From: a virus
Taxonomy: Duplodnaviria > Heunggongvirae > Uroviricota > Caudoviricetes
Length of the DNA: 64,000 nt
Reading direction: 5' to 3' (one strand)
IMG/VR virus record: IMGVR_UViG_3300031419_000007
Both the position numbers and the translations under genes were made by a program. The notes under the pieces are model-generated. The model worked only from the letters and a program-made list of their open reading frames with translations, searched no databases and was not told the origin of the DNA. Positions 36,242 through 37,658 of the stretch are shown one piece after another; the first letter of the stretch is position 1, and every line of letters starts with the position of its first letter.

Positions 36242-36442
36242 TTAGAGATCGACTTTCAGGACGTTCTCGTAGTAACGCTTGGCGCCTTGCCAAGTGCTAA
36301 TAGACTTCGAGTGGCCTACCAGCGGTTCGAGCACGACCATCTTCTTCCCGAGCGACTTCACCCGGCCGAGCTGGAGTTCCGCCCCGACCGGAGATGCCAC
36401 AATGTCACCAATCTCAAGCTTACGGTTCATCATGTCATACAT
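36242..36442 (-). CDS. KOW-like mini-protein, tandem paralog 1
   Basis: 66 aa. M..D..G..IGDxV...G motif shared by six adjacent ORFs; resembles the KOW motif of ribosomal L24 and NusG. Confidence 0.45.
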   Translation of the reverse strand: MYDMMNRKLEIGDIVASPVGAELQLGRVKSLGKKMVVLEPLVGHSKSISTWQGAKRYYENVLKVDL

Positions 36443-36632
36443 AGTCGGGCTCCTTCAGGATATCACGGGTGTATTTCTCGGTTTCACGCTTGCCGTCAGT
36501 CATGACGACGGCCTTACGGTCAGGATCTTCACCTTTAAAGCCGGTGATTTGGCCACGACGTAAACCACGGTCGTTGATCGAGGTGATGATGACCCGATCG
36601 CCGATACAAAGAGTGTTGCCTAAAAAATCAAG
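36435..36632 (-). CDS. KOW-like mini-protein, tandem paralog 2
   Basis: MLDFLGNTLCIGDRVIITS... GGAG RBS. Confidence 0.45.
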   Translation of the reverse strand, partial: LDFLGNTLCIGDRVIITSINDRGLRRGQITGFKGEDPDRKAVVMTDGKRETEKYTRDILKEPDYV

Positions 36633-36822
36633 CATTGAATTTCTCCACGATGGCAACCTGAGAAGAAGTCTTTAATACGGAGCCTGCGTGATCCAACGCT
36701 TGAATACGGATCATGCGGGAAGTGATTGCGACGACCCTGCCGTGGCGAAGATCTGCATAGCGACTGTGGGAATAAACCACGCGATCACCCACGTCGATTT
36801 CTTTACCTAAGGAATCACGCAT
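36628..36822 (-). CDS. KOW-like mini-protein, tandem paralog 3
   Basis: MRDSLGKEIDVGDRVVYSHS... Confidence 0.45.
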   Translation of the reverse strand: MRDSLGKEIDVGDRVVYSHSRYADLRHGRVVAITSRMIRIQALDHAGSVLKTSSQVAIVEKFNA

Positions 36823-37045
36823 CGATGTTCACCTTCACAAAACGGTCAGGGCCACCAGTCCAAGTGGAATTGCTGCCAGGAAGGCGAACACGGATCTTGG
36901 TTTTGGTAAACTCCACGACTTCGGCCACGGCCAGACGACCGGACGCAGACGCTGAGTACATTACCAGATCGCCAGCCATCAAAGGCTGATTGATGGCGTC
37001 ATGACGGGGGTCTACAATGTTCAAACGCTGATTATAGGGATCCAT
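36815..37045 (-). CDS. KOW-like mini-protein, tandem paralog 4
   Basis: Start MDPYNQRLNIVDP... with GGAG RBS, then MAGDLVMYSAS. Confidence 0.45.
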   Translation of the reverse strand: MDPYNQRLNIVDPRHDAINQPLMAGDLVMYSASASGRLAVAEVVEFTKTKIRVRLPGSNSTWTGGPDRFVKVNIDA

Positions 37046-37238
37046 GGGCTTTCTCCACGAGGGCAACTTGAGAAGCGTGACGACGAACTTTCTTGTTCGC
37101 AGCGTGCGGCTCTTCAATGAGAACACGGCAACCGTTAGGGGCCACCGCAATGACTTTACCAGTAACGATATCGCCACCGCACCAACCGGTCGCGACCACG
37201 TCGTTCAGGCCGACGGGCTTGCCATTACAATCCTTCAT
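37032..37238 (-). CDS. KOW-like mini-protein, tandem paralog 5
   Basis: MKDCNGKPVGLNDVVATGW... Confidence 0.45.
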   Translation of the reverse strand: MKDCNGKPVGLNDVVATGWCGGDIVTGKVIAVAPNGCRVLIEEPHAANKKVRRHASQVALVEKAHGSL

Positions 37239-37467
37239 TCAGCCTCCGCAGTGGCATGAACACGTCGAAACCCTGATCATCAGAAGGGTGGGGACAGCGG
37301 TCTTTGTACACATGGCCGAACTTGTTGCGATCGTACTCAAAGGTGGTTCCGGTCCAGACGGCTTCAGTGGCGTTCCGGCAGTAACCCTTGTAGGTTTGGC
37401 CCACGACCAGTTCTTCCTTATCCAGGATATCTTCAGGTTTACGGTTAGAAGTATAGGCGTACATCAT
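37225..37467 (-). CDS. hypothetical protein (80 aa, not a family member)
   Basis: ORF interrupting the KOW-like array. Confidence 0.4.
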   Translation of the reverse strand: MMYAYTSNRKPEDILDKEELVVGQTYKGYCRNATEAVWTGTTFEYDRNKFGHVYKDRCPHPSDDQGFDVFMPLRRLNEGL

Positions 37468-37658
37468 GGCAGCTGCCCTGTGTAGTGAATGACAGTGGAT
37501 GGGCCGCGAGTGATTTCACGGTCAGCTTGGGTCTTAAGGGTAAGGCTTCCGCCGTCAACGCTCAGGATGATGCCGACGCGGGATGTCTTAGCGATATCCG
37601 TCGAGAAGTAAACGACGGTGTCGCCGACGGCAAGTGGATTGCCAAATTTGTCTTTCAT
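37464..37658 (-). CDS. KOW-like mini-protein, tandem paralog 6
   Basis: MKDKFGNPLAVGDTVVYFS... Promoter-like motif at 37683-37694. Confidence 0.45.
   Translation of the reverse strand: MKDKFGNPLAVGDTVVYFSTDIAKTSRVGIILSVDGGSLTLKTQADREITRGPSTVIHYTGQLP

Follow-up and report, generated by a model that had tools for sequence, protein, structure and literature searches.

A tandem array of six small genes of the phage family PHROG 2251, with products modelled as SH3-like barrels, within a tRNA island

Small barrels of the SH3/Tudor-like type are reported to form the largest phage-only structural clusters, in which about 1.3% of proteins are found, and all of these clusters are uncharacterised (Viral AlphaFold Database, Sci Adv 2025, PMC12487901). 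Related folds are known from KOW domains, such as those of NusG/Spt5 and uL24, and from the Tudor/PWWP 'royal family', which includes the Tudor-like C-terminal domain of ProQ and the cyanobacterial PSHCP. The Tudor domain of ProQ drives RNA duplexing and strand exchange (review PMC9977716). In this work, we describe an array of six mini-protein genes, named m1 to m6, which is located at positions 36242-37658 of a 64,000-nucleotide (nt) stretch of DNA (IMG/VR record IMGVR_UViG_3300031419_000007, Caudoviricetes). This whole stretch is called the window. A preliminary description of the window, made from its letters only, had presented these genes as a tandem array of KOW-like proteins.

Judged by profile and sequence comparison, the six open reading frames (ORFs) are anciently duplicated genes of one large phage-specific family, PHROG 2251. 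The proteins consist of one domain each, about 60 amino acids (aa) long, which structure modelling assigns to the SH3-like barrels of KOW/Tudor/PWWP type. The six copies agree with PHROG 2251 in profile match, length, single-domain build, and phage-only distribution. Elsewhere, PHROG 2251 occurs as one copy, occasionally two or three, and tandem sets of 5-9 copies are found in the clade of phages related to Salmonella phage Arash. The array is a clade-specific expansion within an already catalogued, uncharacterised family.

The region is filled by seven consecutive genes, all on the minus strand, namely the six family copies and an unrelated gene, u80. The coordinates in the preliminary description were exact, and the strand, which it had left unstated, is minus. 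From m1 to m6, the genes are as follows:

37464-37658, minus strand: m1, family copy 1, 64 aa (MKDKFGNPLAVGDTVV...); phrog_2251 E 9.8e-8
37225-37467, minus strand: u80, an 80-aa all-beta protein within the array, no kin of m1-m6; member of phrog_18490
37032-37238, minus strand: m2, family copy 2, 68 aa (MKDCNGKPVGLNDVVA...); phrog_2251 E 6.5e-4
36815-37045, minus strand: m3, family copy 3, 76 aa counted from ATG; phrog_2251 E 2.9e-5
36628-36822, minus strand: m4, family copy 4, 64 aa; phrog_2251 E 4.9e-11
36435-36635, minus strand: m5, family copy 5, 66 aa counted from ATG (MLDFLGNTLCIGDRVI...); phrog_2251 E 2.4e-7
36242-36442, minus strand: m6, family copy 6, 66 aa (MYDMMNRKLEIGDIVA...); phrog_2251 E 1.4e-5

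In this order, and with u80 included, successive genes overlap by 4, 14, 14, 8, 8, and 8 nt; the stop of m1 shares the sequence ATGA with the start of u80. A clear Shine-Dalgarno (SD)-like motif stands before six of the seven starts (GGGAG, GGAGG, GGAGA, AAGGTG, GGAGA, and AAGGAG), the exception being u80, whose motif is weak. The earlier statements that the ORFs are mostly translationally coupled, that all family copies keep ribosome-binding sites, and that an unrelated 80-aa ORF interrupts the array stand: stops and starts overlap and are accompanied by SD motifs, each of the six copies has a clear one, and u80 gives an E value of 270 in the leave-one-out comparison. The m3 protein carries a 13-aa N-terminal extension relative to the other copies, while m4 is the most family-typical copy and was used for the structure model. 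Plus-strand ORFs that overlap the array were dismissed because the PHROG matches and the coding constraint belong to the minus-strand frames.

The relationship between the copies is supported by two kinds of comparison. The phrog_2251 profile, which is independent of the window, matches all six proteins (E 4.9e-11 to 6.5e-4) and is the top family for each of them. In a leave-one-out design, profiles built from the other five copies recover m1, m3, m4, m5, and m6 with 12.7-31.4 bits, compared with 5.6-9.9 bits for the best of 999 shuffles. The m2 protein fails this test; what joins it to the family is its phrog_2251 match, together with a BLASTP match to m4 (34% over 64 aa, E 7e-6). A profile scan of all six frames of the window found no seventh copy. 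The N-terminal pattern M(K/R)D..G..(I/L).(V/I)GD.V, by which the genes had been recognised, is real, although looser than it was written: the M(K/R)D start is present in three of the six copies, ND replaces GD in m2, and the sole invariant positions are D3, D13, and V15. Identity between paralogues is about 18-34%, and each copy has an orthologue in Arash or in other relatives, which agrees with the proposal that the duplications are old. Their only trace at the DNA level is a pair of direct repeats, 85% identical to each other:

36633-36665, unstranded: junction repeat copy 1, 33-nt direct repeat at the end of m4 and the start of m5
37043-37075, unstranded: junction repeat copy 2, 33-nt direct repeat at the end of m2 and the start of m3

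The repeat encodes the C-terminal sequence SQVA(I/L)VEK (SQVAIVEK in copy 1), supplies with its GGAGAAA the SD sequence of the next gene, and includes the next ATG.

The family to which these genes belong is large. A profile search of 1.84 billion representatives found 2801 clusters, counted at 50% identity, at E<=1e-3 and 64 at E<=1e-10, and the proteins are mostly 55-90 aa long. Their consensus reads MKDxxGxxLxVGDxVxxxxxxYxxLxxGxVxxFTPKxxR...PxQVxK; the motif GFTPK..R is kept in the wider family with its two basic residues, and the median isoelectric point (pI) is 9.1. Among the 150 best matches, 12 combine two or three family domains in natural fusions and 7 carry cysteine-rich, zinc-ribbon-like C-terminal tails. 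The N- and C-terminal extensions of 15 longer members contain no Pfam domain. A word-indexed homologue search returned close relatives only, even with a 50-sequence alignment as the query, and the family hidden Markov model (HMM) found no member in the whole of T7 or in the tRNA region of T4 (60-82 kilobases, kb). The family fits the description of the small-barrel clusters in the Viral AlphaFold Database survey (PMC12487901), which makes no mention of tandem arrays or of a neighbourhood of transfer RNA (tRNA) and RNA-repair genes.

As to the fold, the predicted domain consists of a five-stranded SH3-like barrel preceded by an N-terminal hairpin of conserved sequence, x-D-x-x-G-x-x-L-x-x-G-D-x-V. 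In the model, this barrel is shared with the KOW domains of NusG/Spt5 and uL24, and the barrel fold is also common to the Tudor/PWWP proteins. The differences from KOW domains are considerable: identity is only about 16%, the G-x-x-K-G loop of the KOW motif is not present in the alignment, the hairpin with its invariant Asp is an extra element of the phage family, and the phage proteins are free-standing, whereas KOW domains sit in larger factors. Searches of Pfam, NCBIfam, and PDB with the six proteins and two family profiles gave nothing significant. The best Pfam KOW match was KOW4_SPT5 (E 0.1, 13 bits, with a cut-off of 27), PF00467 was not reported, and the only PDB sequence hints for the broader profile were sub-threshold matches to uL24/L26 KOW regions (E 0.3-3.5). 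The term 'KOW-like' used in the preliminary description consequently holds for the predicted fold and not for the sequence family, as the sequence matches are not significant; that the proteins belong to the KOW family is not established, and in the model Tudor or PWWP describes the fold equally well. The refuting outcome named in that description, predicted structures unlike SH3 or KOW, did not arise as far as the fold is concerned.

Other sub-threshold hints pointed to PhnA/YjdM, DUF1918, Hva1, PSHCP, and Phage_ProQ_C_like. The matches to Hva1/DUF2945 (PDB 4p5n, CNAG_02591) and to the C-terminal domain of PhnA/YjdM are not significant (E 0.15-0.22), and both groups are cellular, not phage, proteins whose functions are poorly known too. 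Two Pfam entries, DUF7205 (PF23835) and Phage_ProQ_C_like (PF24203), are loosely related to the family. DUF7205, with a gathering cut-off of 27 bits, matched none of the six proteins even at E<=10 and 2 of 50 diverse family members at E<=1; relatives carry precomputed DUF7205 labels, mostly graded 'weak'. Among the Pfam models, Phage_ProQ_C_like is matched by the largest number of these diverse members, 14 of 50 at E<=1 with 9.1e-5 as the best value, which hints at a remote relationship, although m4 itself reaches 13.8 bits (E 0.097), below the 27-bit gathering cut-off. No conserved aromatic cage of the Tudor/PWWP kind was found: the copies have one to five aromatic residues each, the six share no aromatic column, and in the wider family Y22 and F33 are the only majority aromatics. 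A BFVD fold search returned only uncharacterised phage proteins. The top matches P0063 and P0067 are multi-Tudor proteins of eukaryotic type, found through the sequence rhythm of the fold, and were set aside as uninformative on phage function.

The window comes from a relative of Salmonella phage Arash (180.8 kb, an unclassified myovirus), which is its closest cultured phage and has an NrdA 75.7% identical to that of the window. The phage collection held no near-DNA match to the window, and a distant-mode search matched tRNA genes only; the exact m1 sequence is also present on metagenomic contigs of up to 176 kb. Arash carries a syntenic array, gp81c-gp73c, between tRNA-Arg/Lys and tRNA-Val/Ile/Glu/Lys, which consists of eight family copies and gp79c, the orthologue of u80. 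All of these genes are annotated as hypothetical, and the Arash paper does not discuss gp73-81. The preliminary description had proposed looking for variable copy numbers in related phages, and the family HMM does count different numbers per related contig: five copies in L003, six in L002, L010, L039, and L040, seven in L006, L008, and L036, eight in L005 and L007, and nine in L009. Outer members of the array keep their order, while interior members were gained, lost, or replaced among relatives; for instance, m3 is missing from L003, and u80 from L039/L040. Arrays of this size characterise the Arash-like clade, and elsewhere one copy is found, sometimes two or three (L015/L016, Citrobacter phage Ci1, L029). 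A separate observation concerns L029, a 198-kb IMG/VR contig of an unrelated large phage, in which a three-copy tandem array at 5786-6398 has no tRNA genes nearby; tandem duplication therefore recurs outside the Arash-like clade.

Orthologues in Arash are gp81c for m1 (56% identity), gp78c for m2 (50%), gp75c for m5 (45%), and gp73c for m6 (52%). For m3, the orthologues are P0028, P0033, P0036, and L039 g76 (55% identity), with none in L003 or Arash. The m1 orthologue in L003 is 81% identical. Between the window and L003, the five family orthologue pairs give ratios of nonsynonymous to synonymous substitution rates (dN/dS) of 0.26 (m1), 0.14 (m2), 0.12, 0.29 (m5), and 0.23 (m6), and u80 gives 0.04. 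Since the family values lie at 0.12-0.29, these are protein-coding genes under purifying selection. At the same time, the mini-proteins outpace core genes in divergence, with 43-56% identity to their Arash orthologues as against 75.7% for NrdA.

The surroundings of the array bear on its expression, for which the following features are relevant:

37717-37793, minus strand: tRNA-Lys(UUU), directly upstream of the array (ARAGORN; Rfam tRNA 69.3 bits)
37687-37715, minus strand: sigma70-type promoter-like site from a consensus scan, TTCTCA, 17 nt, TGGTATAAT (extended -10)
35412-36203, minus strand: 263-aa ORF, 38 nt downstream of m6, with a strong SD sequence (AGAGGAGAA)
35137-35366, minus strand: tRNA-Ile, tRNA-Glu, and tRNA-Lys(CUU) cluster downstream of the array (ARAGORN, Rfam)

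The promoter-like site is located between tRNA-Lys(UUU) and m1. Its 9-mer TGGTATAAT occurs once in the window, and Arash, L003, L004, L005, and L009 all carry the block GGTTTCCTTGGTATAATAA unchanged, even though the coding DNA is too diverged for megablast. No convincing terminator was found between the array, the 263-aa ORF, and the three downstream tRNAs, and Rfam models matched only the flanking tRNAs on the array stretch. The 263-aa ORF, which has no Pfam, PHROG, or NCBIfam match, is kept after the array in L036 and L039. Arash lacks it; there, tRNAs flank the array at 33 and 43 nt, the latter being the distance to the tRNA-Val that comes next. Because the promoter-like site is conserved, no convincing terminator intervenes, and tRNAs lie close on both sides, it is likely that the host polymerase transcribes the array early from the putative extended -10 promoter, on one transcript with tRNAs. 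A very permissive proteome of Arash virions detected 116 of 252 proteins and none of Gp073-081 (PMC10585845), which weakly argues against a structural role.

In the window, the array lies within a co-directional island of tRNA and accessory genes, in which ARAGORN predicts 22 tRNA genes from 35.1 to 49.9 kb, every one of them on the minus strand. Other genes of the window encode NrdA, RtcB, Band_7, HD, and metallophosphatase proteins. Three of the neighbours matter for what follows:

56843-57988, minus strand: RtcB RNA ligase gene at a distance of about 19 kb from the array (Pfam E 1.7e-87)
42997-43221, minus strand: Acb2/Tad1-hairpin-like ORF, 75 aa, 89% identical to an L039 protein with the precomputed label Acb2_Tad1_hairpin (PF24729)
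38129-38473, minus strand: DUF1353 gene, PHROG 1158 label 'tail assembly chaperone', just upstream of the array in all relatives

The tRNA and accessory island also includes the RtcB gene and the second of these, a candidate cyclic-nucleotide sponge. Searches with the immediate neighbours of the array (the 263-aa ORF, a 209-aa ORF, and DUF1353) gave no functional clue. A DUF1353 gene is also found in the tRNA region of L092, a 169-kb contig without the family.

A comparable neighbourhood was observed in phages unrelated to Arash. ARAGORN, the family HMM, and marker proteins were used to scan family loci taken from GenBank phages and IMG/VR contigs. In Citrobacter phage Ci1 (T4-like, with three family copies), Yersinia phage P778, L017, and L037, only 0-1.3 kb separate family genes from co-directional tRNA clusters, and in L021 a tRNA cluster is 4.6 kb away. 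In L018-L020, the order is RlaP, RtcB, family gene, RNA ligase, with the RtcB stop abutting the start of the family gene, and in L015/L016 RtcB is 2 kb off and a NadR-like gene is adjacent. In Salmonella phage SSBI34, the gene for the CCA-adding enzyme begins 12 nt downstream of the family gene, and L022 has a NadR-like gene and a CCA-enzyme gene near it. Altogether, tRNA or RNA-repair genes occur within 6 kb of the family gene in 9 of 21 independent non-Arash lineages, compared with 6 of 77 DUF1353 control loci (odds ratio 8.9, p 4e-4). L041 is a further tRNA-positive locus in addition to these. The enrichment is suggestive only, since the control is not matched for phage type. The locus in Yersinia phage vB_YenM_P778 (L027; PP693300.1, 12574-20759) contains 23 tRNA genes called by ARAGORN, where GenBank annotates only small hypothetical ORFs; one family gene overlaps a tRNA-Lys call at its 3' end.

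The reading that we tentatively prefer takes these elements together, and even as the best explanation it stays somewhat short of an even chance as a whole: the early products of the array would be small binding modules whose ligands belong to tRNA or RNA biology. According to it, host RNA polymerase would transcribe the array early, probably together with the downstream tRNAs, and the products would be non-structural modules that share a scaffold, formed by the conserved N-terminal half, and differ in their ligands through the divergent C-terminal half. Such ligands could be tRNA or RNA itself, the barrels then acting as chaperones or protectors of Tudor or KOW type; they could also be enzymes and host nucleases with tRNA as substrate. 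On this view, the array would be a panel of specificities serving a tRNA-based counter-defence of the phage. This mechanism, taken by itself, is possible but held with low confidence. Besides the tRNA and RNA-repair neighbourhood, the hints counted in favour of RNA are the basic GFTPK..R motif of the wider family, the median pI of 9.1, the Cys-rich tails, and the matches to Phage_ProQ_C_like. Several points weigh against it. The six window copies have partly lost GFTPK..R and are only mildly basic (pI 6.2-9.8), and the residues that are invariant among them are acidic (D3, D13), neither basic nor aromatic. No PDB relative is detectable by sequence, and a profile comparison with E. coli ProQ, using a ProQ sequence entered by hand, gave no match (probability 0.9%), so that no significant sequence relation to that protein was seen. 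About half of the lineages have no tRNA or RNA-repair neighbours (L023-L026, L029-L032, L034, L042), and the DUF1353 controls come mostly from temperate phages of about 40 kb. The neighbourhood itself may reflect no more than the tendency of such islands to gather small accessory genes and to possess strong promoters, and a literature search for DUF7205, PF23835, and PHROG 2251 found no paper.

The main rival, which carries nearly equal weight and must likewise be called doubtful, is a panel of protein-directed inhibitors in which each barrel would block a different host defence or housekeeping protein, in an arms race unrelated to RNA; an arms-race inhibitor family had also been raised in the preliminary description. 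Barrels of the SH3, Tudor, and KOW types are classic protein- and peptide-binding modules. The shifting copy number between close relatives, the turnover of interior members, and the low identity to Arash orthologues beside that of NrdA are all consistent with such a panel, as are the Acb2/Tad1-hairpin-like ORF in the same island and the genes of the nicotinamide adenine dinucleotide (NAD)-salvage type (NadR-like, Nudix, NAMPT) that adjoin family genes in L016, L022, and phage DLP_6. However, dN/dS is well under 1, with no positive selection at this resolution, no likeness to characterised anti-defence proteins was seen, and it would be left unexplained why family genes so repeatedly lie directly beside RtcB, CCA-adding enzyme, and tRNA genes. 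The preliminary description had suggested a modulation of translation or antitermination. As modulators of the KOW type, the proteins would mimic the KOW domains of NusG, RfaH, or uL24, dock on S10, Rho, RNA polymerase, or the ribosome, and alter transcription-translation coupling or termination. The uL24/L26 regions among the PDB hints fit this idea, and read-through would matter on the long transcript of messenger RNA and tRNAs on which the array probably lies. A KOW-type action on ribosome or polymerase is possible with support limited to the modelled fold, and we regard it as quite improbable: the best Pfam KOW score is below its cut-off, the characteristic loop is missing, Tudor and PWWP fit the model equally well, the proteins are only mildly basic, and six to nine paralogues are hard to explain with a single conserved host target. 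Least probable of all, and very unlikely in our judgement, is a hetero-oligomer of the paralogues (an Sm/Hfq-like ring or stack) or a component of the virion or its assembly. Small barrels of this general sort are the building blocks of Sm-type rings, translational coupling favours equal dosage, and natural fusions of two or three domains exist in other phages. Against this, copy number ranges between 5 and 9 and a single copy is usual in phages that carry the family, the structure model has no Sm-type N-terminal helix, and the Arash gene products are not among the 116 proteins detected in virions.

Some further observations were made in the window and its relatives. At 38015-38090 (minus strand), there is a tRNA with the anticodon CUA, of the amber-suppressor type, labelled 'tRNA-Pyl' by ARAGORN (Rfam tRNA 58.3 bits); the call recurs at the syntenic place in L004, L005, and L007. 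TAG terminates 8 of the 81 ORFs in a crude gene set. Another tRNA-like gene, at 47143-47219 (minus strand), was given a two-base 'anticodon' (ac) and no amino acid by ARAGORN. A second multi-copy family in the window consists of four ORFs with P22_AR_N (antirepressor N-terminal) domains, all on the minus strand (21339-22256, 54071-54853, 55788-56636, and 59194-59889). A Band_7/SPFH gene recurs near family genes, in the window at 29827-30702 (minus strand), in the unrelated contig L021 at 6772-7941, and in the relative L039 at 11992-12195.

The array itself would hardly surprise a phage genomicist; the interest lies in the size of the family and in its association with tRNA and RNA-repair genes. 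Small SH3/Tudor-like barrels are the most common reported phage-only fold, whose clusters are all without a known role (PMC12487901), and this family alone counts about 2800 clusters at 50% identity. A diverged tandem panel that is under purifying selection in a tRNA and counter-defence island offers a practical entry point to it, as Arash is cultured, and its repeated position beside tRNA, RtcB, RNA ligase, and CCA-adding enzyme genes gives a concrete lead that can be tested. On a bolder and rather unlikely extension of the preferred reading, the family would be a phage toolkit for tRNA biology, with members that bind tRNA or RNA, or the enzymes and host nucleases by which tRNA is cut, repaired, or matured, and would have been expanded in the tRNA island of Arash-like phages to a co-transcribed panel of 5-9 specificities. 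As a possibility, such phage barrels may also have been the source of the Tudor-like domain acquired by enterobacterial ProQ. If the link to tRNA and RNA is false, the array is a clean example of accessory-gene turnover and little more; if it is true, a sizeable part of phage dark matter would acquire a function.

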